DNA of 63,117 nucleotides, counting the filler, from Folioceros fuciformis (lineage: Eukaryota), in the NCBI GenBank assembly GCA_049999805.1. It is 17 parts of 17 records of this genome, joined end to end, with 100 filler letters (N's around TTAATTAATTAA, not from the genome) between each part and the next. Parts side by side here need not be neighbours in the genome. Positions count along the whole stretch, not along the records: positions 40,122 to 41,891 come from JBNGIO010006841.1; 16 more parts are not named here. One strand, given 5' to 3'. Of this stretch, positions 14,879 to 61,931 are shown in pieces. How positions within the stretch are numbered: the stretch's first letter is position 1; each line of letters starts with the position of its first letter. The notes below the pieces were generated by a model, which saw nothing but the letters and a program-made list of their open reading frames with translations, was not told the DNA's origin and did no database searches. Both the position numbers and the translations under genes were made by a program.

Positions 14879-15698
14879 CCTCGGTTGGTGCGTGTGGTCG
14901 CCCTTAGAGCCGACTCCCCCATTAGTCAGCGCGCTCCGCAGCCGCTTCACTCCCTTACAAGATTGATCTGATTTGACATGCCTCCTAGTAGTCCGGTTGT
15001 TTGCATCCTCTGCGAATCTCTTCGGTCCCCCCTTGGGCGCAGATTTTCCTTTGCCTGCCTGACTACCCCTGGCAGCACACAGTAGGCACGCATCAACAGC
15101 TGATGACTGCTTAGAGCACCCCCATAACCCTGTATTTCCAACTGCCAATGTGGAGCCCCCATCACACGGACATGGGTGGATCTGCACATGAAATAAGCAT
15201 AGAATTAAGCAAACCTATCAGCAACTACCGAACATCTCTTGCGCATAGAGGACAGACCCAACTCTGACGCACCATCACACCGCCACTTCCACTTCCACTG
15301 TCACTGCCGACAAGCATTCCAGAGCAGCCAGGACCTACCAATTCTGGCTCCTCATGCTCTTGCCCGCCACACACCACAGCTCCCGCCTCTGTCTTCATGC
15401 TTTCCCTGAGCCAGCCGGCTAACCCCAAACGTGCTGCTCCCAAACCCCTATACGCGAAAACTGCACACAGACCGATTAGCCAACCCTGAGCCTGCATGTC
15501 TCTCCTACCGACTCCCCCACCCNNNNNNNNNNNNNNNNNNNNNNNNNNNNNNNNNNNNNNNNNNNNTTAATTAATTAANNNNNNNNNNNNNNNNNNNNNN
15601 NNNNNNNNNNNNNNNNNNNNNNCTGCGATGCTCCATTTCGCTAGACATTGGAGCTTCGAGTGGTGCATTTGGTGAGGTTTGGTGTGGATGCCGCGCAG

Positions 15699-18600
15699 GT
15701 GTTCGGAAATCTGAGCTTGCAGGATGTAGTGCGGGCAAGCGAGGTCTGTCGGTCGTGGCGTATTGCTGCAGCGTCTCATGCGCTGTGGGAGCGAATTTGT
15801 CGACGTCTCTGGCGTGTTTGGGAGAACTTGCCTGATTTCGAGGGAAGCAGGGTGCCGTCTCAGCTGGCTGCCGTGCAATGGCACAGGTTTTGTCGGTGGA
15901 GGATAGAATCGGAGAGACTGGCAAAGCAGCTTGTGGCGGGAATGGGATGGCCGCTCAAGCTGCCCGGTTACCTGAGGAAATTGGTTGCCCTTGGAAATCT
16001 GGTCGTGGAGGTCCGTACTTCGCTTGACCCTGCAAGCTGCAAGTTGAGGGAGGTTTGCGAGCTACGGCTGCTGCCATGCTCTTTCGGATATCACTGACGC
16101 TGGGGCCGGGGCCGGGGCCCGGGCTGTCCTTGTCTGCTGTGAAGGAGTTGGAGCGGCTAGCTAAAAGAGACGGAGACCTGGAAGAGGGGACCCGTTTCTT
16201 TGCAGGCCTTGCAGTGGAGAGGATCAATCATAGCAACTGTATGAAAGCGATGGCAGCCCTGCTTTCGGCTTCCGTCGCACAGGTAACGACCCGCGCCTCA
16301 GACGTGAGGCATCGTTTGTGTCGATCAAGAGGATCTGAGACCGTGTGTGTCCTCAATTGAGGAGTCCCCAAGGGTGGATTTTGAACGCCTTTCCGTCGCG
16401 CTTCACGCATCCTCACTCCTGTGCCCTAGATCCTTTTGAATTGCTTGCAGTACAGGTTCCACATCCTCACGTTCTTTTCGACGGTCTCTCACTAGTACTG
16501 GATAGCACTGACTCACTATTGTCTCATGCTGTTCATCGTTTACTTGTATGTAGCTGGAGGACCAACTTGCGAGGGGAGCGCTAATCATTGCGAAGCTCAG
16601 GTACAGGATCTGCGATTACGTTTCAATTTCATTGCCCGGTCAAATCGCTTTGCTTTACGAATTTGGTGTTGTTACACCACCGCATTCTCAGGCACCGTGT
16701 CGTTAGCCCTTTCTCTTGACAGATACGAAGACTTGGACATAGATGCCATTGAATCCAGGATGGAGGAGGTTGCCAATGTGCTTAGCCGCAGACTCCAGCA
16801 GGATGTCGAGTAAGGACCACTCTTTGCCCTTCTACCCGCTATGCTGTGTCGCGCTCTTTTGTGTCATTGATTTGTGCACGTCAACACCAGGATCGAGCGG
16901 CAAGGGGGCATCAATACGCCAGGCGGGGTGTTGATTGGACTGAAGCATTTGAATGCGCTCCTCTTCAGACAACCATCAGATCCCCTTGCTCCACTGAATT
17001 ACGATGATTCTGATGACCCGGAATGCCTGAACCTCTCTGCAAGCAGAGAAACGTTCTATCCTCCTGAGAGGTTGTATATTAATGATGTTCTTGATTCCCG
17101 GAAAGGTGTGGACCTCAGGTTTGTGGCTAGTCTTGCCTGTTATCTCCGTAGTGATCGCCAGCATCCCAGCTACATTTCGTCGGTCAGGTTGTGATCTTCC
17201 ATTCGGTTCTGATATGATTTCTTTGGAAAATTGTCATGACAGCCTTGGAATTATTCATTCTGCTGTAGGCCGGAGATGTGGTATTCCTGTGCAACTAGTT
17301 GCAATTCCTATGCTCTTCATGACCAAGGTGGGGAACGAAGGGGACGCTGAGGAACGATTTGTCCACCTGTTTTCGGGAGGGGTTCTCCAGCGGCAAGAGT
17401 GTATGGAACTGATACTGTGGGTAATTTTGGCCACGCATGTCCAATGCAAGTTGGCAGCTTGTCAATATCAGTAGTGATGTGAACGTAGGCTCTTCTGGGT
17501 TCCAACTCTTCCTAAATATCTCTTGTATGTTCCTAAGCAGTATCTCTCTCGTTTTTCAGAATGATGGGCTTGCCATTTAACCCTAGCATGCTTGCCCCGG
17601 TTCCTCCATCGAGCCTTCTGGTTGCATTGTGCGACAACCTTATCACAATGTTCCGTCAGGCAAGTTGGTAGTGCCTGGCGAGTTGTTTTCTGACGAGAAG
17701 AGGAACTGAGCTTGATTTGCTCTCCTAAGCTGTGGTAAAACTGCTCGTTTGCAGGGCAGTGAAGGCAGCACCAGACAGATACCGAAGTGGAGGAAGCAGA
17801 TGATCTTACCTTTACTAGATCTAGTACTTTTAATTTCTCCGGACGACTGCTCCCATCGTTTCAGCAGAGCCAAGGTTAATTGCACGATACAGCTACACAG
17901 AAGCTGTAGTTACTCCAAATTTTGGCTGTATTGAGGGTGTGCACCTGTTCTTCCCAGGTTTTACTTGAAATGACGGATTTTGAGGCTGCACTTGAGGACT
18001 TGCAGGTGATACTTTCTCGACCCTCTTGAGTTCTTTATGTTGGTCGGATGATCAATTCAACACTTCTTTGTGTTGCTTAGAATGACCCATCTGGATGTGT
18101 ACCGGAGAGGCCTTAAACCATGACCCATCTGCCCTTCCTCGATAACGATTACGACTGAGCGTCGTGGAGCTGTACAGGAGCTGTTGCAAAGGGCTGACGG
18201 CAGGGGAGGTGGAGGGGATGGTCAAGAAGGAATTCCGAGTGCTCTCTTGCAACAATTCTTGCAACGCGCCCTTGAGAGGAGGGGAGTACACGCTGTAAGG
18301 AACATGCATGATTCATGTGTTTACAGGTCCATCTTTGTCTGTCAAGGGGGTAACAGTGACTTATAAATCCATGTCTGCAGGCCTGGTGCAGCAGGAAAAG
18401 GGCTCCAAGACCGCCACACGTTCTCTACAGAGTTGGCAGCACAATAAGACATCGTCGGCTGCTTTACATTGGGGTGATTTTCGGATGGGACACCGAGTGC
18501 TCAGCGGATGAGGAGTGGATTTCGACTATGAAAGTATGTTATTTGAAGCTGTTGTAAATTGGAAATTGAAGTTCCGTCTTGCAGTATTACTTAGGAAGTA

Positions 18601-20377: not shown

Positions 20378-21388
20378 GAACTGCCGAAGCCACTTATACT
20401 CACCCTCAAGGTCTCCCACGAACTTTAAGGCTCACTGTCCCCAGGGGCACGAATGATTCCAGCGCGTATCTTTCTCACGCGCTAGAAATCCCGCCATCCT
20501 CCAGTCTTTTCGCTTAAACTGCTTCCGATGGGATTGCTCCAAAGCTTCTGCTGCAATCAATGAATGCCCCCATATGCGCCACAACAAAGCTTTCGATAAA
20601 GCTGAATCCTGTCCTACATAGACCACCACGGACCAGTTGACCCAGAGATGGAAAAGGCAAGAAGACCACAGTAAGCCCCACCATTGTGTTTTAAGAAGAG
20701 GTTTGCCCGAGGTTGCGTCCAGCCCAAATAAGGCTGATTGTGTCGTAATCCTGAGGTTAGCACCAGGAAAAATCAAACAGAGCCACCTGCCAACCTCCCT
20801 CTAGATCTCTTGGGCAAAGCTGCAATGATAGAACATGTGTTGGCTCTTGTTCGGAGCCCCAGCGGAGCACAATCGACACACATTCTCCCCCGTTGCAGCT
20901 AAAAGCCCATCCCACTGATCCGCATTAGGCAAACACGCTTGAAAAAAACACCAAACCGTAGACCTGACTTGGGAGGGATTCATGTGGCCTTCCATAGAAG
21001 TTTGATGGCTTCCCTTTGTCGCTGTCTAGCTAGTTGCAATCGGAGAGCCATTGGTTGTCTTTGCTTGATTTTTTGCGCTTGCACCAACCAAAGGAACAAG
21101 TCCGCCGTTGGGAAGTTGAAGAAAGCTTGAGGGATAGCCTTCTTGCACCCTGGACGCCTGGGCCACTTGTAGAGATCTGGTCTGAAGGTCAAAGTCCAAT
21201 TCTCGCCCCGTCGAAACCAGCACTGAACCTTTGTTTTATCGGAGGTTAGTGGCCCAATTGGGCGTTCGCCTGGGATGCACCATCGCCCTGTCCGAACGGG
21301 CTTAACGAGAACAGTGATAGCCCCAATTCCCCTCCTCGGGCTTCCCCGTCATCCCTGCCCTGTTCTTCCAAAAATCCATCAGGCGACA
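20378..21388 (-). mobile_element. Degenerate L1-clade LINE, 3' part of ORF2 with CCHC (zf-RVT-like) motif
   Basis: CRLCSAGAPNKSQHMFYHCSFAQEI motif with stops and frameshifts. About 21137-21388 is clearly homologous to 36452-36704 of the RT-containing LINE. Confidence 0.8.
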
Positions 21389-23570: not shown

Positions 23571-24592
23571 TCAATTCTTGTCAGGCTTCAATGCTAACGA
23601 TGCACTGGGAACAATAAAAACGTCGACACGTGGGCTCAGTACGAGCGACAAACGCAACAAGCGAATCTGGTGGGCTCAGCCCAGTTAGAGGAGCTGTAGC
23701 CAGCCACGTGAGGCCTACCTGTTGATGCAGTAGCGCTTCTTGGTAGGCGGAGGACCATCGTTGAAGACATGACCCAAATGAGCATCACACACGGCGCACA
23801 ACACTTCTGTCCGAGGCATAAAAGGTATAGACCAATCTGACTCCGACTTCACATTCTCGGAGACGAAATCCCAGTAGGATGGCCAGCCAGTGCCACTGTC
23901 AAACTTGGTGCTTGATCTGCAAAGCAGGATAGGATTCTGAAGCTCCTGATGCTCCACGATGCGTGGAAGCAAGAAGAGAGGGGCTGCGAGAATTACTGGA
24001 ATAACGGCGTGTCACAGCACACGCAGTAGTAGGTGCCTTGGGTCTTGGTATTCCAGTATTGCCTGAAGACAACACGGCCCAGAACTGTCAGCCAAAGGCA
24101 GAGGCAGGAGCAGAGACACGCCCAGGGAGCGTCCATGGCCATTACCCTGTGAACGCTCGCTCTGTGCCCTTCTGCCTGGTCACGTTGTACTGCTCTTCGC
24201 TCAGCTTTTTCTTCCATTCCTCGTCGCTGATTTGCTTGAAATCCCTTGAACCTGCTGCGACTGCGAGCAAGCAGCGATCATTACCAGCCCTACACAATAG
24301 CGGTCACGCACCACCTCCACGGCAAACAACCTTGGGACAAATCAGCATCAGGCGTCTGGGCCGACTGGCCGGAGCAGCTTGCGCCCATGCCTCTGAGGTA
24401 TCTCTGGCTCCCCTCGCGAAGGTTCCGGGTGCTCGAGCTTCCGCAGCTCAACTCCCTGCGGATCACAAATCCTCCAGTACCTCCTACCCTTGCAATAGAA
24501 GAACAGTTTGAGGCGGTGAGGGCGCAGCCAAGCTGGCCTGGCAGGAGCCGCAGGCCACGCACATCATATATGTTGGAAGCTGCTGAAGACAT
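23571..24592 (-). CDS. MSRB1: Peptide methionine-R-sulfoxide reductase B1 (1-Cys type), plastid-targeted
   Basis: [51 protein letters not shown] (Thr in place of the resolving Cys), [35 protein letters not shown]. Start codon uncertain. Confidence 0.93.
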
Positions 24593-24972: not shown

Positions 24973-28803
<3,831 letters not shown>

Positions 28804-32500: not shown

Positions 32501-35500
32501 CATCTGCCCAAGGTTCAGCGTATCCTCTAACAACAGCAAGCGGAAACCCATTTCTTCGATCAACTTTTCCAGTTGCAAGATTAAGACCGTCGATTAGGCT
32601 CCATAAGCCTCTGCAGGCTTCAGCTGCAACAGGTGCCGATATATTGGGACTTGAAATAAGGTTCGCACCTGTTGTCTTAAGGCAGGAGCAAAGATATTCA
32701 GCTGTGTTCAAAGATCTTGCATGGACCAATATCTGGGTCATGGTTTGGCCCTCTGCTGATGCTGCACCTCCCACATTCTCATGTCCTTCCCCAGGGCTAA
32801 GCAAAGACTTGAGCTCAGAGGTGACCCTTGTGAGCAGTGCCCCAACACATGCCGTAGACTCGTAAAGCACGCGACCGGATGGATCATCTGCATATGATGC
32901 TGCCTGTCACATTACAATTTAGTTTAGTCCATGTGTAGCCACGAGGGATGTCCTACAAACACACTCATGGCTACGCAACAACCTGACGGTACAGACGTAG
33001 TAGGGTCACACTGCTGTTCATGTAAGTGGTGTCCGGTTTACTGCCATACAAATCCATCAGCTTACGCAATACCCCAAACCCCTGCCCAGATCATGAAAAA
33101 GAGGAGACGCATTTGTGAGGTGCGCGTACAGAAACAGCCATTCTTAAGGCAGGTCACGTACTCTTGTTGCGCATAACTGCAACAGCGAATAACTCACCTT
33201 TATGAGAAGGCTCGCATGCTGGGGACTATTAGTTCCCAGTATAACGTGTACGAGGGCAAGAATAGCTAGGGCAGAATCTTCAATTGCAATCCTCTGTTGC
33301 ATTGCACTACTTGCCAGTAGATTTGACAGAACCCGCAGTGCCTGGTGCACAGTTGCAATTGCCTGTTCACTGCAGAGGAGAGTGTGTTAAACTTTGGGTA
33401 TGAGGTGCAAAAAATTCACTGCAAAGGTTACAACGTCAGCATGACCTCTATGCTCAGCTCAGCATACATATCGTAGCATCAACCAGTGTCCTCCGAGATG
33501 GCTTGCCACAAAAGCCATGGGAAAATTATGATATGCGGACATACTGCAACAACTACTGCAGACCACAATGAGAACTGAGACGAGTACAAGTCACCAGAGG
33601 CATGCCTTGCCAGGGCTGCTATGCCTTTCACTGGTAAAGAGCGGAAGGGTTGTAGTACATGTCCAAAAGCACCACGGTCTTGAGCAACAACAAGTGCACC
33701 TTTAACTGAGCGCGACGTGTTCTCAATCTTGTCTAACATTGACAACTCTGCAAGGAAGACAATACATGGGTGCATGAAATGCTGAAAGGCCTCACGAAGT
33801 CATGAAAAAGAACGTCACAGTTGGACTAACATGCGGCTGCGCCATTACCTGATGTCGCTGGTGAAGTTGCCCCCCCAGAGGCAACTGTTGCCATATGTGA
33901 TGGTTGCTGCAGCTGATTCTCATTCGACGGACGTGGAGTCAAGGCTGGACGTTCAAGAGGAGACCGGTCACTTGGTGGGGGGCTACCTAATGGACGGTCT
34001 GCGGCATCCTTTGTACGAAGCTTTCCTGACAGAGAATGGCCCGGATTTGTGTCAATTACAACTTAGACAGTTGCACTAAGGGATGAGCAAGTCTGTTTCA
34101 CCTGTTGGACTGGGTGTTGCTGCTTTCGTAGAGCTTGCAGTGGCTATTGACAATGAAGATGAGAGCGTGATGTTTGCCTCGCCTCTCCAAGCAGCATCAC
34201 ATACTCTGTCAGCAGCTGTTGCAGCACGTAATTCCTGCAAAAGGTCCTTTAGAGACAAAAGTGTGGCAAACTGTGGAGCCCGGGTGATAAGAATGAGTAT
34301 CGAGAACCCACTCGGGCAGCAATTTCCTCGTCTGTCTCCCTTACGAAAGGATGCTCGAGCAGCGCAGGCCACGTCAGGCGATTTTGAGAAACCTGAATCA
34401 ACATAGCGGACATTACATTGGCACCATTCCTACCAATAAACTTTAGAGCAAAGGAACCAACTTGCGAGGAAGACCGAACAACATCGAGAAACCAGAAGTG
34501 TTAATTTCAGGACCAAAGGTTGAAAAGGATAATAAACAAAGACACATAGAGATACAACATGAAAGAGGGAGCGCTGCACATGTTTAGGCTCAAACCTTGT
34601 TCAGAAGACCTTTCAGAAAACTTTTGAAATTTGGGCTGATATTATCTGGGTACTTGACTGGGTCCTGTTACAGACAATCCAAGGAGGGCTGCAGGTTAGA
34701 CCATGATAACACTGCTGTTCCAAGCTAGCAAACCTGCAAACCTAACAAGAAGCCGTAGGTAACCTTCACAATGTGACGAATCAATGTGTAGACTGAGTTC
34801 GTGTAGAAAGGAGGTTGGCCAACAAACAGTTCATACCTTCACAAGACATTCAAGATTAGAATTTCTATTGAAGTTTATGGATCTGCATAAGGGTACGGAA
34901 CATCAAAACAGAGGCTGAAGCTGAAAAAAAAAAACAATCATATTCATTTTACCGTACCACGGGGTAGCAAATCAACTAAAGCAGCTATCTTCTGACTGTT
35001 GAATAGCGGCACTAAGGGCATGAAGGTTGTTCCTACAAGGTCCTTACAAGATGACTCCAAGTGACCATAGATCTGCGGTGTGATTGTAAGGTTGCTCCCT
35101 CACAAGCTCAGGTGCCATGTACAGGGGTGTTCCTAATGTGAATTGGCAGAAGCATTTCAATCAGCACCAGAGTAGAAACACGTGCTGCGGTGAGATTGCA
35201 CAACAATGTTCATGAACGTGAAGCAGCTCACCCTTAATAGAGCGCAAAACCATGGTGTTGCAGGACATCGCCCTCGCAAAACCAAAATCACATAGCTGAA
35301 ACATGCGTTAATGTAAGATTTACGCCATACAAACGTTGTTCCCGGTTAACATACTGACAAGCATAAAGTTTGTCGACGATAACCACAGCGTCCTACCTTA
35401 ACAACCCCCCCTGCTCCAATGAGAATATTTTGAGGCTTCATGTCCCGGTGAATGATCCGATGCGAATGCAGGTAGTGGAGAGCTCGAACCTGAAACCAAA

Positions 35501-36212
35501 ACCGAGCTGCGTGAGGTAAGCCTTTCTTAGTATGCAAGAAGCCAGAAAATTCGAGGATTCCTGAAGCATCCTGACTGGAACAAACGACTGGGACCGAACA
35601 CCTCAGTACTTACGAGCTGCTTGGCAATAGCCTGGACTTGAACTTCAGGCAAACACTTGTCGTCTTCAAGAATCTCAAAGAGCTCTCCCTGCACGAAAGA
35701 GTGGAGAAGCGTCAAACCTCCACAACAGGCGAGAGAGGGACCAGGTTCCGGAGCCCCAGGACAGGGCACGCAACAGGCAAAAAGAGCACACCTGAGCGAA
35801 TTCCGTGACCACGCAAAACTCCTGAGGACTCTCAAACGCGTCCAGCATTTCAATGATGTTTTCGTGCTTCAGCTGGCGCAAAATCTACAGAGAGACAGAC
35901 CTCCTCCTCTCCGCATTACACACTTCACGCAGAGCGACACGCCGAAATGCAGCAGCAACCATTACCTCAATCTCTTGCCTCAGATTTTCAATGTCCTTCT
36001 CGCTTTTACCCGGCTTCATAATAAATTTCATAGCCACAGTCTGCAGATGCCATGCAATTACAAGGTGAAGGACATTGCGCGCAGCCGGGTGTTAGGCAAA
36101 GAGATGACGGGGTTCCACTCACCTGGCCAGTGTACTTCCGCCGGCCCTTGTACACCTTTCCGAACGAGCCTTCCCCCACCAGCTCAATCACGTGGTAGTT
36201 GTCCACCCCCAT
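29557..36212 (-). CDS. TIO: FUSED / TWO-IN-ONE Ser/Thr kinase with C-terminal ARM/HEAT repeats
   Basis: [81 protein letters not shown], and C-terminal [48 protein letters not shown]. Confidence 0.96.
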
Positions 36213-36449: not shown

Positions 36450-38290
36450 TATCCTTCTTGCACCCCGGACGCTTGGGCCACCTATAAAGATCTGGTTTGA
36501 AGGTCAGAGCCCAGTTTTCACCTAGTCGGAACCAGCAGTGAACCTTTGCTTTATCGAAGGTTCGTGGCCCGATTGGGCGTTCGCCTGACGTGCACAATCG
36601 CCCTGCCCGAACGGATTTACAAAGGACACAGACAGCCCGCAGCTCTCCCCCTCGACCTTCCCCATCGTCCCTACCCTGAACTTCCAGAGAACCGTTAGGA
36701 GACACGACCTTGAACGACCTCAACATCTCTTTGCCATCAGCTCTTGCAATCCAAACCGCCCTATCTAGATCTAATGCTTTGTCATGATCATCCTCCTCCT
36801 CTGAATTGATTCCCCTACTATCCATGGAATAAGCGTACCACCCTTCCTCTCCTATGGTAGGTTGCTGCCTTAAGAGCTGTTGCACCTTTTCCTCTAATCC
36901 CTCGTGCAACCATGAAAAAATGAACCTGACGTGCCGGCCCCTAAGCCAAAATCACCTTTGACCTCCTCTACCTCCTTCCAGCGGGACTCTGATCTGTTCC
37001 ATAATTGGCCAAGCTGGATAATGCCTTTCCAACAAGCCAACCCGAAAATTTGTGACCGATACACCCTTGACCTGAAATCCTGTACCCATAACCTCGAGAA
37101 ACCTTGCAGAGGGATACCAAGAACATCATCCACATGGGAGAAGTTGCCCAGAAGAATATAATGTTTGACCTCCAAGTAACTGCTCCATATGGACTTAAAA
37201 AGGGAGCATTCTGTAGTATCAAGTAGCGGTTTGTCAGCCAGAATCTTGTCTATAGATCTCCTTCCCCTGGGGATAGCTTGGGTACACTCCAAATGTTGTG
37301 TTAGAAGACTTTTCTAAGGATACTATGCCAGATCGGTTGCCCTAACAACCCATTGAGCATGCAAAACTTTCATCTTGGCAACTGGGTCCACCACCCCGAG
37401 ACCCCCCATTCCACGCGCCCGAATAATATGCTGCCAAGACACTTTAGAACACCCTGCCATACTATCCCCCGAACTCTTCCATAGGAAAGAAGTCAGCACC
37501 TATTGTAAGCGCTTCACCTCTGACTTAGAAGGGGCCCACAAAAACAGATAGTACCAAAGAGTTGCAGTAAGGATATGGTTGATCACCACCAACCTACCTA
37601 CCAAATTGAGCTCCAACAATTGTAGACCAACCGCTTTGCGAATGAACCTGAGACAAACGTACTTCCCTATCTCCCCATTCTCATCCCCTTCTTGGAAAGG
37701 GAGCCCCAAATACTTGTGAGTAGAACCCAGGGTCACTCGCCTGATGTGGTTAATACACTTAGGGAGCTCCCCCTCCATGTGAAGACACATCATGCGTGTC
37801 TTGTTCCAATTCACCTTGCAGCCCGAAAGTTCACCAAAGACCTCGACCTGTCGGAGCAACGCTTTCAATGAGGCCTCCTCTGCCGAGGAAAAGAGAAGAG
37901 TATCATCTGCAAATGCAGATACCCTTAACTATGTTCCATCTGGGTTCCGAATACCTACCACTGCCGGGTCTTGCTTGACTGCTCTGAGAAAGAAGTCAAT
38001 GACGATAATAAATAAGAACGGAGCAAGGGGGCAACCCTGACGTACCGACCGAGAGATGTCGAAACGCTTCGTAAAAGAACCATTGACAGCCACCTTGGCA
38101 CCTGCGTCTTCACACAAAATGGCTATCCATCTGCAGAAGTTATTCCCGAAGCCGAAACTACGCAGGCCTGGCCATAGGAAGTGCCACTCAACTGAGTCAT
38201 AGCCTTGTAAAAGTCAAGGGAAATGAAAACGACGGCTTTCTTTTGTACCTGGGTGTTGTACTTAGCTTCCCTCAGAAGAAGGAGGTTGTC
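36450..38290 (-). mobile_element. Degenerate L1-clade LINE ORF2 fragment (reverse transcriptase)
   Basis: SLDF..AYDSVEWHFL, SRSVRQGCPLAPFLFII, SAFADDT, FGELSGCKVNWNKT, HKYLGLP, GGMGGLG; several stops and frameshifts. Confidence 0.92.
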
Positions 38291-40021: not shown

Positions 40022-40269
40022 NNNNNNNNNNNNNNNNNNNNNNNNNNNNNNNNNNNNNNNNNNNNTTAATTAATTAANNNNNNNNNNNNNNNNNNNNNNN
40101 NNNNNNNNNNNNNNNNNNNNNAAGAAAACTAATTTAAATATTACAATATTATGTGAAAACTTAATATTCAAACACCTTGGCAAATTTCTAAATCTTTGTA
40201 GTTTGAATTTATGCTAAAAAATAATGATAAAAATACATAAATTAATAGATAAGATTTAGCACTACCCAC

Positions 40270-41244
40270 CATGGAGGTTGGAATGTAAGACAACAAGCTG
40301 CCATATAATTATGGTATCCATCTATATTATGAATTCCTCGTTGTGTGTGTCTTTGAGATGTAAGGCTGCCTTTGTCGTGACAGCATCTTCCCTGATGAAT
40401 GCATGTATTAATTTTATTATAGTAGTAATGGGGATGCTGAGGTGAAATTTAAGTGTGGAATAGCTCTGGGCAGATACTTACACAACTGTAGGGAATAGGA
40501 TTGTTGTTCATTCTGTCTTGGTCGGTTGCATATGCTCTAAATGTTGCGAGGAGATGAAGTTTAACACACCAGAAATTTTGGAGCCGAGAAAGAGCATGAG
40601 GCAGCAGAGAGGGATGCTTACAGGCCGCAGGGGAAGTGATCGCCGTCGTCTCCTGGGATTTTACAGTGGCAGTTTTTCACAACGGTAGTTACTTCGAATC
40701 CTCTGTTCGGATAGTTCTGAAAGACAGTGCAAAGTTTAAGGAGAGTGTGGTGACCAATCTGTGGATAGCACAGAAACGGGGAGCAAAGTCTGTGTGGTCC
40801 TGTGCGTGTACCTGCGTGTAATATAGAGGATAAAACAGCTTGACCGGCGTCTTAGAAAGCTTGATTACCACAGGGTTCACAAGATTCTTGATTTCCCCTG
40901 TTTTAGGATCCTTCAAGCTGTCGATCTGTGCATGTAGCGCATTTGCGTCTGGAACCTAAACGGTGGTGGAAAGCAAATTTGTGAGATGGAAGCAGTAATG
41001 CACAGTGGTTGCCTTGGTCCTTGGGGTTGAAGAAAAAGGAATGGCTCACCTGGTTGGCTCGCACGTTCAGGAGCACCACAATCTTGGTAGTGCATTTGAC
41101 CTGGTTCGGAGACCCGTCGTTAGGGCACACGGCGATGTTGCTGCTGGCGAGAAAATCCGCCCGCGCACCGCCGTGCAGCAGGCACAGAGTAGCTATGGCG
41201 GCTGCGGCGGTGGCTTGGGCATACAGCAACTGTAATTGGCCCAT
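40270..41244 (-). CDS. HAP2: Divergent HAP2/GCS1 class II gamete fusogen, first five exons (3'-partial)
   Basis: Exons 41244-41050, 40955-40812, 40716-40622, 40536-40482 and 40391-40270 splice in frame with GT-AG: signal peptide, FLASSNIAVC..VKCTTKIVVLLNV, PVVIKLSKTPVKLFYPLYYTQNYPNRGFEV, PIPYSCGRCC, TQRG, AACCLTFQPPW. Confidence 0.85.
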
Positions 41245-42415
41245 TGCAGATATTGATTGTGGCCGATTAGCTGCGAATGTGCACGGGCAGATGAGCGGAG
41301 GACCCCAGTTGTGAGTGTGGAATTCTTATACTCCGAGTGCAGCGGCAGCCCGGGCCTGGCCATAGTAGTGTCGCGGGGATTACGCCTTGCATCATGTTTT
41401 GTGCTCATCCTGAGATGTGTCTTCACCCATCATGGTGTGCCTCCCCACCTGAACACGAGCAGGGGTCGCGTCATCCCTGGCCTGAGCAAGAACAGGCGGA
41501 GCGGCATCTGCCCTATACTGTGATTTCAATGCACCCCATCCCAGTCTTTTCCCGTCGCGAACTTGACGGCAAACAGTGTTGACCGGCCCTGAGCAGACCA
41601 AATCAAACAAACGTGCAAACTTTCTAAAGGATTCTCTAAAGGGTTAAGCAACCGTTGTTTCTTTCGCAAGTAAGCGTCGCCCGTCAGGCTTACCCTCTGG
41701 CCTGCCGCATTTTCACAGAAGTCTCAATATCAACACATGCAACAAGGCATGTGGCCAGTTGGCTCCCATCTCCAAAAACTGGGTCGCAGCATCATCTCTG
41801 CAAGCGCAAATGGAAGAGGGAGCTGTATGGAAGTGATGGCGCAGTGTCGTTGGAATAAATTCAGAACCCCATCATGTGTATCCACCGCATGNNNNNNNNN
41901 NNNNNNNNNNNNNNNNNNNNNNNNNNNNNNNNNNNTTAATTAATTAANNNNNNNNNNNNNNNNNNNNNNNNNNNNNNNNNNNNNNNNNNNNGTTTTATGT
42001 TTTTAATAAAATCTGCATTATCCTTATAAAATTGTCAGGTATGTGCTGCCACTTTATCCCCTTCCTTCATTTTCAGGGGTGGAAGTTCATAACCTCCAAG
42101 CCCTTTGCATAAGCATTGTCCCAACCAACTTGGAAGGCTTGCATAACACATGTTACGGTGTGGAAGGCATTTTCAACAATTACGATGATATGCAACCTAC
42201 AAGGCAAGTTGCAATTGTAAGTTACAAGGGCATATGGAAGGGATTCTACAAGGATAGAGGCATTTTGCAAGGGTTTTTGTGAACCCTTGGAAGGGAATCC
42301 ACACCCTAATATATATTTTTAGTCTGAAAAGCTAATGTTATTTTATCATAAAAAATATTTTCTATATACATAAATAAAATAATTCCTTAAAAATATATGA
42401 TAGTATAATGAGGTT

Positions 42416-42521
42416 TTTAGGGTTTAGGGTTTAGGGTATGTAAAAATATATAATATAATATAATATAATAATTTCCCTTCGGATTGTTTTTTCCTTCATC
42501 CATTGTTTTACGGGTTTAGGG
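42416..42521 (+). repeat. Short interstitial plant telomere-type repeats in an AT-rich tract
   Basis: (TTTAGGG)3 at 42416-42436 and one more unit at 42515-42521. Confidence 0.7.
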
Positions 42522-42670
42522 TTCGGCAATTATGTTTTGAAAAATGTCCCTTTTCTCCCAAGTTTTGGGAGCCAAGCTGTTAAGAAAAAGCGCTTGCCCG
42601 GGAGCTCAGTGAGCTTTCCTGCTCAAGTAGAGGAGCATCAGGAGCTGCTAGAACTGGCCCACGCGAGCGT

Positions 42671-43447
42671 TCAGCATGGTAACAAGCTCTTTGTGGGAGG
42701 ACGCTCAATCTCCTCGTCAAGGTCATGTTCACGTTTCCTCTTGCTCTTGCAACGGCAAGGCGTGGAAAGTAGTGCCACAGCGCCTGACATACCCCCGCCT
42801 TCGCTGTCGGCCGTATCCTCGTCGGCGAACAAGGAAGCAATGGGTGGCAACGGAACCTCCGGCACAGCGAAAGCCTCGAGCATGAGCCACAGGCGCCGCA
42901 CTGGACCATTCTTACCTTCCTCTGAGAAGAAGTCACTCCCCTGGATGCTGCTGTTTCCGCGTAGCAGCTCTCGCATCAGGCGCTTCAATTGGTATAAATT
43001 AGGCAGCAGACTGTAAGTGCCTTCTACGGTGAAGGACCTAAGCAGCGAGGCGAATTTCAGCGCCGTCCTGTGTCGGTCCTTGGCCCTTGCAGCGGCGAAC
43101 CTCACGAATTGAGCCATGCAAACCTGGCATCCTCGACATTTTTTTTGAGCCATGCAAACCTGGCATCCTCGACATTTTTTCGCGAAGGTTCCAAGCTTGT
43201 CGGCCTCATGCCAGATGCGGGTATACTCCTCGTTCCACTTCCAGGCCATCTCACTCGCGAGCTCCAACACAACCAGCACCTCGCACAGGAGGTGCTTCAG
43301 TGCTCGCCACGAGAACGACGCTCCGGACTCTGAGGTACCGTTGCTGCTACTGCTGCCGTCGATGTATGACATGGTCGCCAAGCCCTCCCAACTACTGGAC
43401 TCTGTTCCCTGTCCGACAATGCGAAATCCAGAACCAAGAACGCTCAT
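42671..43447 (-). CDS. Unassigned intronless ORF (about 258 aa) with a duplicated KKCRGCQVCMAQ motif
   Basis: Long open frame with acidic tract and basic KRKR near the C-terminus; in-frame 36-nt tandem duplication at about 43110-43181. No family recognised. Confidence 0.4.
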   Translation of the reverse strand: MSVLGSGFRIVGQGTESSSWEGLATMSYIDGSSSSNGTSESGASFSWRALKHLLCEVLVVLELASEMAWKWNEEYTRIWHEADKLGTFAKKCRGCQVCMAQKKCRGCQVCMAQFVRFAAARAKDRHRTALKFASLLRSFTVEGTYSLLPNLYQLKRLMRELLRGNSSIQGSDFFSEEGKNGPVRRLWLMLEAFAVPEVPLPPIASLFADEDTADSEGGGMSGAVALLSTPCRCKSKRKREHDLDEEIERPPTKSLLPC

Positions 43448-44096: not shown

Positions 44097-47000
44097 ATGC
44101 ATGCAGCCGCTGCGACGAAGCGAAGGGCCTTGCGGCCCGTATGCGCCTGTAGCCGAGGATCCGCCTCTTGCGTGGTTTCCCGAATGGCTTGCTCCACGGT
44201 CCGCTTCGTTGTGTCCCCGGCGGCCCCCCGGGTTCGAGTAGGGCATGGCGGGAGCACGCCCGGGCCACCGCGGGCCAGGACCGGTCTGGGAAGGGCAGTT
44301 GTGGCTGCGTCCATGGACGGGGATGGAGGTGGGGAGACTTCGGAATTCAGGGTGGGAAGGAGGGTCTTGTTCGGAGCTGTGGTGTCCGGAGTGGCGCTCT
44401 CCACCGTCGTGTCCAAGGTTTTGGCCAGCGGGGATGCGGTCTTGCCTCCTGTGCCCGGGCCCTTGAAGAATCTGCTGCCGTCGTTGCAGGAGCTGGGGAA
44501 TGCGGGTCCTGCGGGGGACAGGCAGTCTAGGGTGTACGATGCCACTGTCCTCGGGGAGCCTGCCACGGTCGGGGGTGACAAGTCGAGGGTGTGGGATAAG
44601 CTGCTTGCTGCGCGAATTATCTATCTCGGAGAGGCGGAGCTGGTTCCGGACCCTGAAGACAAGGTGTGTGGCGGAGGAATTTGGTTCCAGCTGGTGTGAT
44701 GCCTGTTCTGTGCTTGACGGGCCGTCTGTGCTGACGTCAAGGGCCAACTTTTTTGGAAGAGGTTGGCAGCTGCTGGAAATGGAGATTGTCAAGACTTTGC
44801 GGGAAAGGTGTGTCGATCAGCAGAGATCTGTGTCCGTGGCCCTCGAGGTCTTCCCACGGCCTTTGCAACCTCAGCTGAATCAGTTCATGAACAAAGAGTA
44901 TGACCTCGACCTACCCAGTGGTGGTTCCGAGAGATTGTGTGCAGGCCATTGTGAGTGATTGTGTTTATGTGAGGGTGGCTCTGCTTTGGGAAGTCTGCTT
45001 CGTTGACAAGCAAACTAAGGAGGTGGACATGCTGTGTCGTCGTGTAGGTTGTCGAGCGAGGAGTTGAGGAGCTCTCTGTCCCAGCTGCCTGATGAGCAAT
45101 GGCAACAAATTCTGCCACTGCTAGAGTACTGCAGAGACAACGGTGTTCGGATACTGGCATGTGGTACGCCAGCGGACGTGAGGCTCTAGTTCCTACTCCT
45201 GCACTCCATGCTTCAAGTTGTCTGCGTGTTGTGCTGGCTCACCGGCGACTTGCTGCCTGCAGGTGCTACGGAAAATCCAAGCAAATGGAGTGCAAGCATT
45301 GACTGGAGCAGATCAGAAGTTGTATGTCCCAGTTGGTGGGACTCGTCACGGAGCACTTTCCTTACCTTTCCCGGTGGTCAACGAGTTATTCCAGAGGGGT
45401 CCATATCAGTTTGCTCAGGCGCGCATAGTGTCTGAAAACACAATGGCACAGGTCGTATCGGATTATTTGGCGGAGGGGGATGCCACTGGGTTGCTAGTTC
45501 TGATTACTGGGGCATCTCATGTGGAGTATGGAGTAAAAGGCTCTGGTGTGCCAGCCAGAGTTCCAAAGAGACTGCAGAGGAAGAACCAAGTTGTGGTGTT
45601 GCTAAATCCTGAGCGGCAGCGGATCCGCCAGGAAGGTGATGTGCCGGAAGCAGATTTCTTGTGGTATTCCTCAGCGAAGGGCTGCTCGAGAAACTGTTTC
45701 AACAGAGCTGAGATTGCTCGAGTTATGGATGCCGCTGGTAGAAGGCGGGATGCACTGCCTAAGGTCAGATACATTGTTGGCGTACTCACGTGTCATCACT
45801 TGTGCTTTCTAGAATACTAGCTAGCTGGCCGGGGTTGTCGTTAAGTTCATCACTTGTAATCGTGGTGATGTGCAATGGATAGCCGAGCTGATTTTTGGCA
45901 CCTTTCCAATACAGGATCTCCAGGCAGGGATTGATCAGGGATTGGTCTCCCCAGAATTGTTAAAGATTTTCTTTGACCTTGACAGGCAGCCTATGATTGC
46001 AGACCTTACACAACGGTTTCAGGTAAGCTGCTGGATGGAAGAGTTTCGACCTTTTGGTGTGCAGTGTTTGGTTCCTGCAGGTCTGACTGAAGTCTCGTCT
46101 ACATCTGTTGTGCAGGGATTGCGGGAAAGATGGTTGGCAGACCCTCGTTTTTTACAACGGCTTGCTCTTGAGGAAAGCATCTCAATAACAACAACTCTTA
46201 TAGCTCAGTATGAGCGACGTGGACCTCGTTTTTGGAAAGAACTGGAGTATGTTATTACTGACACTGTTCGAGGAGCAGTGGTGGATTTCTTCACTGTCTG
46301 GTTACCAGCTCCCACGTTATCATTTCGTTCCTTGGATCCTGAATCCAACGAAGGAGGCTTTGTTGCCCTCGAGGGACTAAAAGGGTTATTGGGATCAGTG
46401 CCTGATAATGCTTTCCAAAGAGCACGGCCTGGAGAGTTCTGGGACCTCAAGGCTAGAGCTCTAGCAGTTGTTGTTGGTGGGCTGAAGCTTTTTGGTGTAG
46501 GGTTTATCTCTAGTCTGGGCACAGTGAGCATCACGAACACGATTTTGGCTGTGCGGCAACGGTTTAATCCAGAGCTAGCCAAGAGACGATCGAACAGGAG
46601 ATCGCCTATTTTCAAGACTGCTCTATTGTATGCTTCGTTTCTTGGGACATCAGCCAATCTCCGTTATCAGGTTTGGTTTCCTGCCAGACTGTTGACAATC
46701 GAAGTGCACAATCGGTTTCTTGGATCCTAGGGATAGTGCCATCTTTAGAATGATGTAGAAGGTAAATTCTACTTTACAAGCGTGGGTTCCTGCGGCTATC
46801 GTCTGTGCAGGCAATTGCTGGATTGGTGGAACACTGGGTGGCTGACTACCTGCTTGCTTCGGAACCTTTAGTGGGAAACATGCTATCTTTTGTTGCTCGC
46901 ACTGCAAATTCATATTGGGGCTCCCAGGTCTGTTGTTATGCCTCCAATGATTTGCTGTGTCGGTGCATGAAAGAAAAGGCGATGAGATTCAATTCGCCAT

Positions 47001-51839: not shown

Positions 51840-54584
51840 NNNNNNNNNNNNNNNNNNNNNNNNNNNNNNNNNNNNNNNNNNNNTTAATTAATTAANNNNN
51901 NNNNNNNNNNNNNNNNNNNNNNNNNNNNNNNNNNNNNNNGGTTGGGGAAGACGAACCGCCGCCGTGGAGAGAGGAACCGATAGTGAAGCCCCATTGGGGT
52001 AGTGGAATCGAAGCGTCATGGTGAATGAAAACCCTAAGTAGGGACCCAAGGGTCCTGGGGTATTTTTGAAAGTGGAGCGCAACCATGGCAAAAGCAGCGT
52101 CAGGGAGCGGAAGTGTCGGACAGGACACAAAGTGGAGGCAAGCGAATAGGGCGCAGGCAGAGCCTAAGAGGGGCGACTGTTGAGGCGGATCAGGAGAGAC
52201 ACGAGTGCGCCAGTACCAGGAGGGGCGGTTACGCCAGATCGATGGTGGAGCGGGGCTTGATGGAGGGAGCGACCCCGGACTTGGCACTGGCGGAGGAGTC
52301 TAGGGAGGCAGCGCTGGAGCTGCTACTTAAGGTGGAGGTAGCTTTCTGGCCAAATATGGACCATTGGAAGGCAAGAGCCAGAGGGCTGGTAGAGGAGCTA
52401 GGCCTCGGGTTCATGGGCCAGAGATGGAACCACGTGACCACTGCTCTAGTGCAGGAGTGTGCGCACCGGTTGACGAATAGGACAAAAGGGGAAGGGACAT
52501 GGAAGGTGTACGAGTGTATGTTGTGGTGAGTATAGGTGGTGATGATGATAACACATATCGCTTGTGGCCTTGTTTGTGTAGACACTGTAGATCGCCTACG
52601 ACAACGTGTATGTGCAAGGCTTGGAGGGTATGGACCACCTCCCTGATATGTACCGCCTGCACCTGGCTTTGACAACATTGTGTAAGGAGTGCAAGAGCAG
52701 ACTGGAGGCCTTGGAGGCCTACCTATAGCCTTGGATGGAGGAGGAGGCCACTCCATGGGCATGGAGATGGGCATGGAGATGACCATGGAGGGGCATTTGT
52801 CTCATTTGCTCTCTGTACAAGTGAGGTGTCTACTTAGTGGGTAAGGGGCATGGACAGTTTTGGGTGAAATGCTTTGTACATTTGGCTTGCCCTCATGGGC
52901 TGTGGAATGAAGATGGGGATTTCATTCCCCCGTAGCCTATGCCTTTGCCTTTTGTGCTGTAGGAGAGATCCGCTTGGGGCCACTTGTGTGGTGATACATG
53001 GGAATGAACGAAGGGGCATCTCCTTAAGCTACACCCCTCCCTCAAACCCTCAACACGGTGTGCTGTGGAGATGCACAAAAACATCCCCTTTAGCTGTGCA
53101 CATAGCATTGTAAATGGCTGTGAGAGAAACAAGAAAGTGAGCAGTGAGGCACATCTTTGTGCCATCTTCCTCGGCCTTTCAGCTGTGCACATAGCACTGT
53201 AAACGATCGGTACTGTACATGGGCAGGTGTAAACCCTAAAAAGACTATATGAGAGAGGGACACAGACGTGTCAAAAACAAAAACATCGAATAGCTGCTCA
53301 AAAGTTAGGAAAACCCTTATCTCTATCGGGACGCCCAAATGGCTGCCGACTACGGATGTGGGCAGGTTTGTGACGTCCAGACATTTCGATCTTATACGGA
53401 GGGGCAAAACATTCCATAAAACACCCCTTGACCTTATCGGTATTCCATACTCATGCCATAATCCGGGTGAATGAAGCTTTTTCCTCTTGCCCCTCCACTT
53501 GCCCTTTTTTCTTTGTGTGCTACATGTACAACGAAGCTTTTCCCACTTGATCGCGAAGCATGGTGTCGGAGGACATCCTCCCCCCATGTGGGCCGGTGGG
53601 GTGTTGCGTGTGGCCCTGTAGGAAGCTTCCAGCTGTGGGACCATTAGCTCTCACCATATCGCCAACAGGCTCACTGACACACAAGACATTTTACATAAAC
53701 GGGAGTCGGGAGCTACCACTTGTTATCTGCCTACATGTTCAACAGGGCAGGGAAAGCTTCACCTCTTTTACAGTGCCCGCAGACAGGCTCTTTTTTCACT
53801 CCAATCCAGGGCATTCCCGGGATGTGCATGCATTGCTCTGTCTGTTCTTTCCATAATGGAATGGCAGCCTTGTTGGAATCTGTGGCCGTGGCCACCGCCT
53901 ACGCCTACCCTGACACCACTGGCATGGCGCCTGATTCATTCGAAGTGTGAGTGAGAGAGAACGGGAGATCCTTTTGTGGTCGCTCCAGTACCGGAGGAGT
54001 CCGCATCCTGCCGTTTCCTGCTGTAACGAGAAGCCATGGGGACGTGCTGCTGTGGCCCAATGGCAGCAGCGAAACAAATTGTGCAATCTAATCTGGTGGC
54101 AGGGCAGGCTGGGGTGAAACTGGCCCTCTCCTTTGATTCCTTTCCACTCATCAACAGCCTATCATAGTGGGAATTGGAAGCCATGTGAGAGCCCGGTGTC
54201 AGATCAGGTGGTCCGCCAGGGACCAATTGGGGTAGAGGTCGGCTGCGCGTGGCCTGGCGGATCACGTGGCAGAGGCCCACCCTTGCATTTTAATCTGAAT
54301 CGGGCCCCTTCCAGATCTTTGTAGATAGAGAGTTACATACATACACATACTCCTCCTCTCCTCTCCTGCTGTGCAGCTGCCTGCTGTTGCTGCTGCACCC
54401 CCTTCTCTCTCTTCGCTTCCCTCCCCCTCCTGGAGTCCAGAGCCCGGCCCAGCCGCTCCGCCCCGGCTCCGTTCCCATGGAGCCNNNNNNNNNNNNNNNN
54501 NNNNNNNNNNNNNNNNNNNNNNNNNNNNTTAATTAATTAANNNNNNNNNNNNNNNNNNNNNNNNNNNNNNNNNNNNNNNNNNNN

Positions 54585-56029
54585 AGCGGTTGACCTATGA
54601 TAGCTATGTAGCTAGGCACCATGCCTATATGGCAAAGGTTGTACAGGATGTGGAACCAAGAAGCTTTGAAGAAGCTATTGGAGACACAAAGTGGGAACAT
54701 GCTATGGATGAAGAAATGAATGCGTTAAATCAGAATGCAACATGGGACCTAGTACAACTACCTGAAGGCAAGAAACCAATAGGTTGCAAATGGGTGTACA
54801 AGGTCAAACACAACGCAGATGGTAGTATCAACAGGTACAAGGCAAGGCTTGTGGCCAAGGGATATGCCCAGACATATGGAATAGATTTTGAGGAGACGTT
54901 CAGTCCAGTTGCCAAAATGGCAACAATTCGAACCGTGATCGCACTAGCGGCATCAAAAGGTTGGGTCCTACATCATATGGATGTGAAGAATGCGTTTTTA
55001 CATGGAGAATTGCTGGAAGAAGTATACATGGACCAGCCACCAGGTTATGAGGATTTGGATCATCCAAATCATGTGTGCAAGCTGAAAAAAACGTTGTACG
55101 GACTGAAGCAAGCCCCGAGGGCTTGGCATGAGCGTCTTGCTCAGCATCTGATTCACATCGGATTCAACATGGCAGATGCGGATCATTCGTTGTATGTGTG
55201 CAAAAGTACAAAACGACTGGTCTTTGTGACCATTTATGTGGATGATCTAATCATTGGAGGTAATCAGTTGGATCAAGTGGAGCAGATCAAGGAACTTCTA
55301 CAACAAGAGTTCAAGATGGCGGACCTAGGTGAACTGAGGTTCTTTTTGGGCATTGAAATTATACGAACCAACACAGGCATTTGGCTGTCACAGCGGAAGT
55401 ATGCGTCGGATGTACTAACTAAGTATGGTATGGTTGAGTGCAAGCCAATCTCGATTCCTTTGGATCAAAATCTAAAGCTCAGTGCTCATGATGGTGAAGC
55501 ACTTGAAGATCCAACAATGTACAGGAAGATTGTGGGTAGCTTGATATATCTCACTCTATCCCGACCAGATTTGAACTATACAGTGGGATTGCAAAGTCAG
55601 TTTATGCAGGCGCCAAGAAAGCCACATTTAGATGCAGTAAGGCGAACATTGCGCTATGTGAAGGCAACTATGGATCATGCTCTCTTTTATGTTGCAGATT
55701 TAGAAATAAACCTGTGTGGGTACACAGATGCAGATTGGGCAGGCAGTGTTACTGATCGTAGATCTACAAGTGGATTCATTTTTTCACTTGGGAGTGCAGC
55801 AATTACATGGAGTAGCAAGAAGCAGCCTACAGTGGCTTTGTCTAGTACAGAAGCTGAATACAGAGGCGCAGCAATGGCAGCGTGTGAAGTGACTTGGATT
55901 TGTAAGTTACTCGGAGATTTTGGATTGCAGGTCAACGACAAGGTTGTTATCTACTGTGACAATCTTAGCAGCATACAGTTGACGCGAAACCCAGTGTTTC
56001 ATGCCAGGACAAAACACATTGAAATACAT
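54585..56029 (+). mobile_element. Ty1/copia LTR retrotransposon pol fragment (RT + RNase H), uninterrupted ORF
   Basis: PIGCKWVYK, RYKARLVAKG, MDVKNAFLHG, LYGLKQAPRAW, IYVDDLII, YTDADWAG, SSTEAEY, YCDN, HARTKHIEI. Confidence 0.97.
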
Positions 56030-57355
56030 NNNNNNNNNNNNNNNNNNNNNNNNNNNNNNNNNNNNNNNNNNNNTTAATTAATTAANNNNNNNNNNNNNNN
56101 NNNNNNNNNNNNNNNNNNNNNNNNNNNNNGCCAGATGCGCAACAATTCCTTTGCTCCGTTGCATCAGTACCGCCTGGCGTCGCCCTCTACCTCAAATTGA
56201 TCAAACCCCGCAAAACAATGAAGACCAGCTTGCAGATTCCTCTACCCTGTGCCTGCCTCAAGCATGCATTTAACCAAATGCCGCCAAGATGGTGAGATTC
56301 ATGCCACCAGTTCTTGGTGCCCAAAAATACCCTAAAATTTGCCACCGAATGCCCACATTTCACCATCCACGCCACGAGCTCGGCCGCCTTATTCCCCGCG
56401 GTTTCCTCTGATCGTGACAACTTTGCAATCCAATGTGGCCAGACATTCAGGACCCGTATTGTATTTTGGCAGACGAGGGGTTTTCGCGGCATGCATGTAG
56501 GGCTGCAAGGCGCGTGGCATGCGACACATGGCGGGCTGTCGTTAGGACATCCCAGGTTCTTCCACACCAACTGGGCTGTTCCTCGATAGTTTAGTTTGAA
56601 AGGGCTTTGCACGCTGCCATTCGTTGCAAACGAGCTCCCCAATTTGCACATAAGCTGCTCACCAATGGTGAGTTACCATCTCTAACGCTGGGGATCCCAC
56701 ACTTCCACATGGCTGCAAACGGCACACAGCCATTGGTTAGAGCAACGACTTCTCCTTGCATGACACTGTAGAGACGAAAAGCTCCCTGGCCCTGCCAGAA
56801 TTCTTTTCGTCTGGCAAACGCGTCGAAAAGCTCCCTGGCAAAAGCTCCCGATCGCCTTACCCTGCAATTAGTGCCGTTGTGATCACATCTTTTCCGAGCC
56901 CCTCAGCATCCTGCACGCTCTTACGGTTTCCATGGCCACCACTTTCGTGACAAACACATCTGTTTCATCTTCGTGTTCTAAATTTTGCACGTGCACCACT
57001 TCCGTTCGCAAAGTTGCCAGAAGGCCATACTCGCCTAACATATATAACCACCTAATATAAAACGTCCCTTGTAGCTAGGCCAGAACTTTGCCTATGGAGG
57101 GAACTTTGTTATGGCTGCTTTGTGGCCTATGGAATACCGATATAGACACCCCTTGTTACATGAGGGGCCGTATTTTTAACCTAGTGGACATGACCGGCTA
57201 TGAGGACATCCTAGATCTTTTTTTCTTTACAACACACTGCACAACACATCACATTTCTTTTTGTCTCTAACACAATCTCATTATGATTTTTATGATTGGA
57301 GGGCATAGGATGCGAACCAAAGTCACCATGCTCCCTGTCACATCCTTTTAGCAAA

Positions 57356-61650: not shown

Positions 61651-61846
61651 CTATTCATGGTTATTAGGGTGGCAAAAACAACGTCTGCGCGTAACGGTCA
61701 TATTCCATTTGACGTTTGGCGCAGTTTTGAATTTACACCATTCTAGTCATATCCATATTTAAGTTATTTAAAAAAATATATTATTTGGATATGTGGTGCA
61801 CACCATACATAATCATAAATAACCAAAACATCACAATCCAACTTAA

Positions 61847-61931
61847 ACATAAAGTAGAAGACCAATTAAATTACATAAAGTAGAAGACCAATTAAATTAC
61901 ATAAAGTAGAAGACCAATTAAATTACATAAA
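61847..61931. repeat. 26-bp perfect AT-rich tandem repeat, 3.3 copies, into a contig end
   Basis: acataaagtagaagaccaattaaatt x3 plus a partial unit. Confidence 0.9.

Follow-up and report, generated by a model that had tools for sequence, protein, structure and literature searches.

To our knowledge, HAP2 (GCS1) is the only known gamete fusogen, both in plants and in many protists. A short contig of Folioceros fuciformis seems to carry a gene resembling it, in which part of the otherwise invariant cysteine frame is changed, and the question raised by this locus is what such a gene could be: the HAP2 of its lineage, a diverged second copy, an interrupted fragment or a protein of another kind. 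The window, i.e. the whole stretch of DNA that was analysed (63,117 nucleotides, filler included), consists of 17 small contigs (1.1-13.4 kb) and 16 spacers of N around TTAATTAATTAA; the contigs are merely chained, so adjacency across a spacer carries no meaning. The HAP2-like gene lies on the minus strand of a contig of 1,770 bp (40122-41891) and consequently is visible only to the limit of this contig, for which neither overlapping ends nor common repeats were found in comparison with the other 16 contigs. The located features are collected in Table 1.

Exon structure, splicing and upstream region

Translation of the minus strand gave five exons of 611 nt altogether, which are joined into 203 codons with zero stops, every exon having AG acceptor and GT donor sites; introns 1-4 are 94, 95, 85 and 90 nt long and their GC content is 0.36-0.49. 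Exon 5 has two candidate donors (40270/40269 and 40266/40265), of which the one at 40266 (..TGGTGG followed by gtagtg), four bases further, is equally good and results in 205 residues with one added Trp. The five-exon, stop-free model of about 203 amino acids proposed in the sequence-only reading was thereby reproduced (203-205 residues, GT-AG introns), and all peptide strings quoted there were found in the translation letter for letter. At the N-terminus there is an Ala/Leu-rich core and then ARA/DF, and residues 1-29, ending at this site, form a putative signal peptide.

In two DNA runs obtained from one sample (X1 and X2) the contig is present and unspliced. A third run (X3) carries the same organism label, belongs to a study separate from that of X1 and X2, and is RNA by guess; none of the runs containing the sequence is annotated as RNA, and a fourth run (X4) contributed nothing. 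X3 contains a contig of 159 nt, which spans 40812-40957 together with 13 letters that agree fully with 41052-41064, where exon 1 ends, and which terminates precisely at the final base of exon 2. In the alignment output these 13 letters figure as a loose end, and their reading as a splice joint is our interpretation; since the identity falls at the predicted place it is hardly due to chance, and the 13 letters most plausibly represent the joint of exon 1 with exon 2 without intron 1. This joint indicates that, for exons 1-2 at the least, the model is real, and that the gene was transcribed and spliced in some sample, the expression data being this one spliced contig of a run guessed to be RNA.

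Another contig of X3, 1,753 nt long, overlaps positions 41683-41891 and extends past the end of the genomic contig. It is probably the transcript of a neighbour gene lying within about 440 bp of the HAP2 start codon, and this short distance suggests a gene-dense genome. Upstream of the HAP2-like gene a palindromic AACCGTT stands at 41650-41656. This is no evidence of control by DUO1, as the DUO1 site RRCSGTT is not enriched in the whole window (37 observed versus 41.6 expected); according to a study on Marchantia, HAP2 is not under DUO1 control there (PMC6290024). An Rfam search of the whole window revealed no RNA family.

Table 1. Features located in the window, with positions counted along the whole stretch
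Feature	Position	Strand	Details or basis
HAP2-like gene, exon 1	41050-41244	-	195 nt, 65 codons; ATG at 41244-41242; Cys40, Cys51
HAP2-like gene, intron 1	40956-41049	-	94 nt, GT..AG; absent from RNA-type contig
HAP2-like gene, exon 2	40812-40955	-	144 nt, 48 codons; closest to HAP2 profile
HAP2-like gene, exon 3	40622-40716	-	95 nt; Glu121 (GFEVTT), Cys129, Cys131, Cys143; putative strand b
HAP2-like gene, exon 4	40482-40536	-	55 nt; putative bc connection / strand c; last residue Cys163
HAP2-like gene, exon 5	40266-40391	-	122 or 126 nt; Cys166-Cys167, loop 168-195, Cys196-Cys197
HAP2-like gene, exon 5 3' end		-	LTFQPPW(W), putative strand d
AT-rich tail	40122-40265	-	GC 0.19; after exon 5, reaching contig end
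Upstream region	41245-41891	.	GC 0.53
Bystin	543-1430	+	exon-wise Pfam, ORF scan
NAD-binding oxidoreductase	2567-3210	-	exon-wise Pfam, ORF scan
GT2 glycosyltransferase	5303-6264	-	exon-wise Pfam, ORF scan
OTU1-zf/UBA/PUB protein	6395-9208	+	exon-wise Pfam, ORF scan
F-box + transglutaminase-like + YccV-like protein	15645-18554	+	exon-wise Pfam, ORF scan
MsrB (SelR)	23718-24277	-	exon-wise Pfam, ORF scan
Kelch + DUF4110 protein	25499-28689	+	exon-wise Pfam, ORF scan
Protein kinase	35349-35884	-	exon-wise Pfam, ORF scan
ChaN (haem-binding) + RETICULATA-like gene (RER5/6 type)	44467-46727	+	exon-wise, four ORFs
Spacers	9875, 15567, 20322, 21626, 22877, 36394, 38335, 40066, 41936, 48104, 50648, 51884, 54529, 56074, 59310, 61976

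Relationship to the HAP2/GCS1 family

The profile, PDB and homologue searches were all made with single exons or stop-to-stop ORFs. Exon 2 matched the Pfam family PF10699 (HAP2-GCS1) with an E value of 0.0018 and 17.3 bits over positions 26-66 of the 515 in the profile, and the ORF at 40692-40955, which comprises exon 2 and its read-through, matched it with E 0.0013 over positions 26-71 of 515; the scores of 17.3-17.8 bits, obtained with a single exon as query, are to be compared with a gathering score of 27.4. Profile positions 26-71 correspond to the place expected for precursor residues 73-118. When the 856 stop-to-stop ORFs of the window (at least 40 amino acids, without X) were scanned with the 24,736 Pfam models, PF10699 was matched at E<=0.01 by a single one, namely the exon 2 ORF. 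The same scan gave six stray matches to unrelated families (E 0.0014-0.0093), thus an E value of about 0.001 by itself is at chance level; the match of exon 2 carries weight because the family had been predicted beforehand and because its position is colinear. Exons 1, 3 and 5 gave nothing against Pfam at E<=10, and the ORF containing exon 4 gave nothing at E<=0.01.

Exon 1 had a single PDB match at E<=10 among 177,635 distinct sequences, 5ow4_A (E 0.45), and 5OW4 is the HAP2 of Trypanosoma cruzi as stated in the structural study (PMC6089408). Residues 30-65 are aligned with 6-41 of the chain, 15 of the 36 columns are identical, both Cys are paired at equal spacing, and mature N-terminus stands against mature N-terminus; by this weak match, a domain I N-terminal strand with its Cys pair is present right after the signal peptide. 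No solved chain other than T. cruzi HAP2 was matched, and here the sequence match is confined to the N-terminal strand. With phmmer exons 2, 3 and 5 found nothing in the PDB at E<=10; the PDB searches with exons 1, 2, 3 and 5 gave no match to Arabidopsis 5OW3, and the HAP2 of Chlamydomonas reinhardtii (PDB 5MF1; PMC5332557), a member of the same family, was likewise not matched by the exon searches. The earlier impression that the sequence is more algal- or protist-like has as its basis this one weak T. cruzi match and not the Arabidopsis or Chlamydomonas chains.

Searches for homologues beyond the solved structures were less productive. An exhaustive phmmer search of 1.84 billion proteins with exon 2 retrieved no HAP2; its sole match, to a stretch of 19 residues which recurs about ten times in a 2,532-aa bacterial Big_1 repeat protein, was rejected as spurious. 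Word-indexed homologue searches among longer proteins, for which exons 2 and 1 served as queries, produced 110 and 227 candidates, respectively, and none of these reached E<=10. In the ESM Atlas exon 5 had no usable match and exon 2 had just PIN_4 clusters (0.79), below lead level. When metagenomes were scanned, exon 2 yielded 591 pattern matches and the 68-aa exon 5 ORF yielded 78, of which 0 were confirmed.

The exon boundaries provided further evidence. In intron-rich genomes the HAP2 introns are located between the segments of strands b, c and d, according to PMC6089408, and in agreement with this the putative segments of b, c and d are divided from one another by the boundaries of exons 3, 4 and 5, strand b having been assigned to exon 3 in an alignment by eye. 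Exons 1 and 2 independently match the start of HAP2 in the correct order and in this way support the family call. On the strength of these two independent weak matches (exon 2 to the Pfam profile, exon 1 to T. cruzi HAP2) and of the intron positions, membership in the HAP2/GCS1 family, as the sequence-only reading had claimed, appears very probable. The locus is a real, partial and transcribed gene of this family, of which it covers the 5' third.

It is highly improbable that the likeness arose by chance in an unrelated secreted Cys-rich protein or in a foreign gene, contaminant or transferred. No match reached the curated threshold, three of the four exons tested were blank in Pfam, and the Atlas searches were without usable result, which would all fit such an origin; on the other hand, two exons lead independently, and at colinear positions, to one and the same family, which motifs had already singled out in advance among 24,736 Pfam models and 177,635 PDB sequences; the gene occurs in runs of two studies with one organism label, and its introns are similar to those of neighbouring plant genes. 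Horizontal acquisition, which had been offered as one possible origin, left no sign: the introns are host-like and the same label was found in both studies, thus this suggestion was dropped.

Cysteines, candidate salt bridge and loop of the putative domain II tip

In a comparison of 38 HAP2s, as given in PMC6089408, nine residues of the b-c-d region are invariant across four kingdoms, i.e. seven Cys, the Glu of strand b and the Arg of the cd connection; the loops between the invariant residues and the membrane-insertion element differ widely among lineages. The 205-residue model contains 11 Cys (21, 40, 51, 129, 131, 143, 163, 166, 167, 196 and 197), and the last eight of these, from 129 on, are in the b-c-d region. 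The cluster motif of HAP2 is named CCxC. In direct reading this motif is absent, the cluster being C163-G-R-C166-C167-H-D, i.e. CxxCC, and no Cys is present between 167 and 196, where the cd-loop Cys is expected. Glu121 in GFEVTT is followed by Cys129 eight residues later and then by Cys143, and at the start of the putative d strand A-C196-C197-L-T-F is found with a Trp four residues on. According to an alignment by eye, Cys131, Cys163 and Cys196 have no equivalent in the usual HAP2 pattern.

This arrangement may be read in two ways. Either CCxC may have lost its third Cys, together with the loop partner of this Cys, and three Cys may have been gained, or the cluster may retain three Cys in the shifted order CxxCC and the loop Cys alone may have been lost; in both cases the small loop which in Arabidopsis is closed by a disulfide and holds the conserved Arg is missing. 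The sequence-only reading had adopted the first of these; the extra Cys stood, the specific losses depend on the alignment by eye, to which the CxxCC order is an alternative. It had also regarded the Glu-Arg pair as retained: Glu121 stands, by eye, where this Glu would be expected, and the Arg is ambiguous by eye, as both R177 and R181 are candidates and either may be the salt-bridge partner of Glu121.

The loop 168-195 (28 residues) is polar, it has four His and no Trp or Phe, and its mean Fauchere-Pliska hydrophobicity is 0.137. The best 11-residue hydrophobic moment (0.49) was matched by 447 of 5,000 shuffles; an amphipathic fusion helix of the Arabidopsis type is thus not indicated, and neither composition nor hydrophobic moment revealed a nonpolar or amphipathic membrane-insertion element in this loop. 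As a description, the missing CCxC, the additional Cys and the polar loop without Trp/Phe reported earlier proved to be true by direct reading.

The order of the elements is the same as in Arabidopsis thaliana HAP2/GCS1 (PDB 5OW3; PMC6089408); the Arabidopsis sequence used for this comparison by eye agrees in its numbering with E117, R163, I171, F172, M175, I176 and K179 of that article. Common to both are the signal peptide, the Cys pair of the first strand, the Glu of strand b, the Cys eight residues after it, the CC pair, and a d strand which begins with Cys-Leu-x-Phe and has a Trp four positions on. The distance separating the CC pair from the d-strand Cys is 30 residues here versus 29 in the Arabidopsis sequence used (C156 to C185). 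Unlike the Arabidopsis protein, the present one has no third CCxC Cys and no cd-loop Cys, and additional Cys occupy positions 131, 163 and 196. In Arabidopsis, according to PMC6089408, E117 and R163 form the salt bridge, and I171, F172, M175 and I176 the nonpolar face of the fusion helix; here the site of this amphipathic helix is a polar stretch rich in His, Asn and Tyr.

The same article describes three short non-polar loops and an additional disulfide (5b) in T. cruzi HAP2 (PMC6089408). According to PMC5332557, the Chlamydomonas protein requires both the Glu of strand b and a positive charge, Arg or Lys, at position 185 of the cd connection (R185K works, R185A and R185Q fail), and there are two hydrophobic loops, of which F192 and W193 contribute to fusion, this being impaired without them. 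Glu121 and the candidate Arg177 or Arg181 would correspond to the Chlamydomonas pair, whereas the loop without Phe and Trp is unlike the one bearing F192 and W193.

Based on these data the following model can be proposed. As the 5' third of a HAP2/GCS1-family gene that a non-seed streptophyte transcribes, the locus would encode a signal peptide, then the Cys-paired first strand of domain I, and lastly the domain II tip composed of strands b, c and d together with the cd loop. The product would be a class II fusion protein displayed on the male gamete, which would enter the egg membrane with the tip of domain II, then trimerise and finally fold back; the fold, the fusogenic function and the male expression are all predictions of this model. 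The tip itself would be built with CxxCC in place of CCxC, without the small disulfide loop round the Arg, with three extra Cys near the conserved ones and with a polar, His-rich loop. A natural HAP2 in which part of the invariant frame has been abandoned and the loop is polar would be a test of which tip features are required for insertion.

Status of the gene, its 3' end and the surrounding window

Plants usually carry a single HAP2. This prior and the intron sizes, which resemble those of neighbour genes, favour orthology: the HAP2 introns (85-95 nt) are similar to the short gaps between the exon-wise Pfam matches in the neighbouring RER5-like gene. Weighing the prior against the departure from the invariants, we give an even chance to the reading that the gene is the lineage's own HAP2 orthologue with a lineage-specific tip. 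An orthologue selected for fusion is expected to keep the invariant Cys, thus the changed Cys weigh against orthology; the weak family matches, the null result of the exhaustive search, the non-amphipathic loop, the drop of GC3 and the AT-rich end also count against it. In its present form, this gene fragment on a 1.8-kb contig is of value as a pointer toward HAP2 in a poorly sampled lineage.

HAP2 paralogues are reported in protists, namely in Leishmania, Dictyostelium, Eimeria, Plasmodium and Tetrahymena. They are a precedent for more than one diverged HAP2-type gene in a genome, none of them being from plants. It is possible, though rather unlikely, that the present gene is likewise a diverged second copy beside a canonical one, in which the constraint on the tip has been released and which may act as a weaker or regulated fusogen, as an adhesion or decoy protein, or as the fusogen of another cell type. 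Residues which are invariant in the 38 HAP2s of PMC6089408 are changed here, the loop is polar without Trp or Phe and its amphipathicity is not significant, and the exhaustive search with exon 2 retrieved no HAP2, all of which would suit a paralogue; nevertheless an exon of 48 residues from a deep-branching plant could fall short of the approximately 41 bits needed even if it were orthologous. No second PF10699 match was found in the other 855 ORFs of the window, which is a tiny fraction of the genome, and within the accessible literature our search yielded no account of a plant HAP2 paralogue or of hornwort HAP2 sequence features; plant names had 0 occurrences in the accessible portion of the supplementary files of PMC9259645. 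The distinct paralogue, the non-gametic fusogen and the decoy put forward in the sequence-only reading gained no support from these analyses. If a canonical copy coexists, plants, like several protists, would be able to duplicate and repurpose the fusogen.

We consider it unlikely that the locus represents a rebuilt tip in a streptophyte of land-plant grade, perhaps a hornwort, either in the sole fusogen, with a different and perhaps pH- or partner-dependent insertion, or in the first plant HAP2 paralogue described. The disulfide loop framing the Arg would then be gone, the new Cys would provide the bracing, and the loop for membrane insertion would be a polar, His-rich one.

The end of the contig lies 144-148 bp beyond exon 5. 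In the window (about 61 kb) four blocks have a GC content of less than 0.27 over 100 nt, and two of the four, the tail of the HAP2-like gene among them, are contig-terminal; the four blocks are mutually dissimilar, and the HAP2 tail is unlike any other contig. The GC3 value, 0.74 for exon 1, has dropped to 0.26 by exon 5. The tail may reflect an assembly break in AT-rich DNA within intron 5, and it fits equally an interruption of the gene. According to the latter, the locus would be a truncated or decaying HAP2 copy, whose transcribed and spliced 5' fragment is interrupted after exon 5 and yields no fusogen. The termination in 144 bp of GC 0.19 (introns: 0.36-0.49), the rarity of such blocks (4 in about 61 kb), the drop of GC3 toward the 3' end and the altered invariant residues speak for it, and the ORF scan of the window found no downstream HAP2 exon, as the other 855 ORFs had no PF10699 match. 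We regard such decay as quite improbable nevertheless: the 203-205 codons are without stop or frameshift, the four GT-AG introns are intact, the joint of exons 1 and 2 is present in X3, and the presumed disulfide pair seems to have changed jointly with extra Cys appearing near conserved ones, which may point to compensated change. Moreover, an assembly failure in AT-rich DNA explains the break equally, a second AT-rich block also being contig-terminal.

If the gene is the orthologue, as we prefer, the ij-loop signature, domain III, the stem and the membrane anchor would lie past the contig end, two thirds of the protein being outside the contig. The ij-loop signature is the original PF10699 segment.

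Besides the ordinary plant genes seen in the ORF scan (Table 1), the window contains the RER5-like one, which was followed further in order to place the organism. Of 8,000 candidates scored against its 301-aa ORF, 430 proteins matched at E<=1e-10, and among the matches listed (the best 120 of the 430) the identity was 66% with Physcomitrium, 63% with Ceratodon and Ceratopteris, 61% with Diphasiastrum, Riccia, Sphagnum and Selaginella, 58% with Mesotaenium and 54% with Chara, that with Physcomitrium being the closest in the list. In a quick tree of 26 of the 120 matches listed, chosen by clade name, it fell outside the supported moss, liverwort, lycophyte, fern and seed-plant groups, on a long branch whose position is unresolved in that tree. 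Together with the TTTAGGG repeats at 42416-42438 and the short introns, these matches point to a streptophyte lineage that has no annotated relatives among the matches listed, perhaps a hornwort, a streptophyte alga being the other possibility.

Several minor features were also recorded. A retroelement of Copia type (RVT_2, E 3.7e-84) occupies an entire contig; the retroelement pieces, consisting of RVT_2, RVT_1 fragments and a zf-RVT fragment, are at 54533-56077 (+), 37503-38213 (-) and 20804-21025 (-). On the GC-rich contig 9931-15522 (0.60-0.66) long ORFs of 549, 559 and 723 aa overlap on the two strands; the longest is of low complexity, rich in Ser, Pro, Glu and Asp, and belongs to no Pfam family. 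Interstitial TTTAGGG telomere repeats, about three copies, were found at 42416-42438 and 42521-42534 in a stretch of AT-rich DNA about 200 bp long. At 43109-43180 a 36-bp unit is perfectly duplicated in tandem (2.0 copies) in a 302-aa minus-strand ORF without a Pfam match, and a 26-bp unit, cataaagtagaagaccaattaaatta, is repeated about three times at 61846-61931, in an AT-rich contig end.
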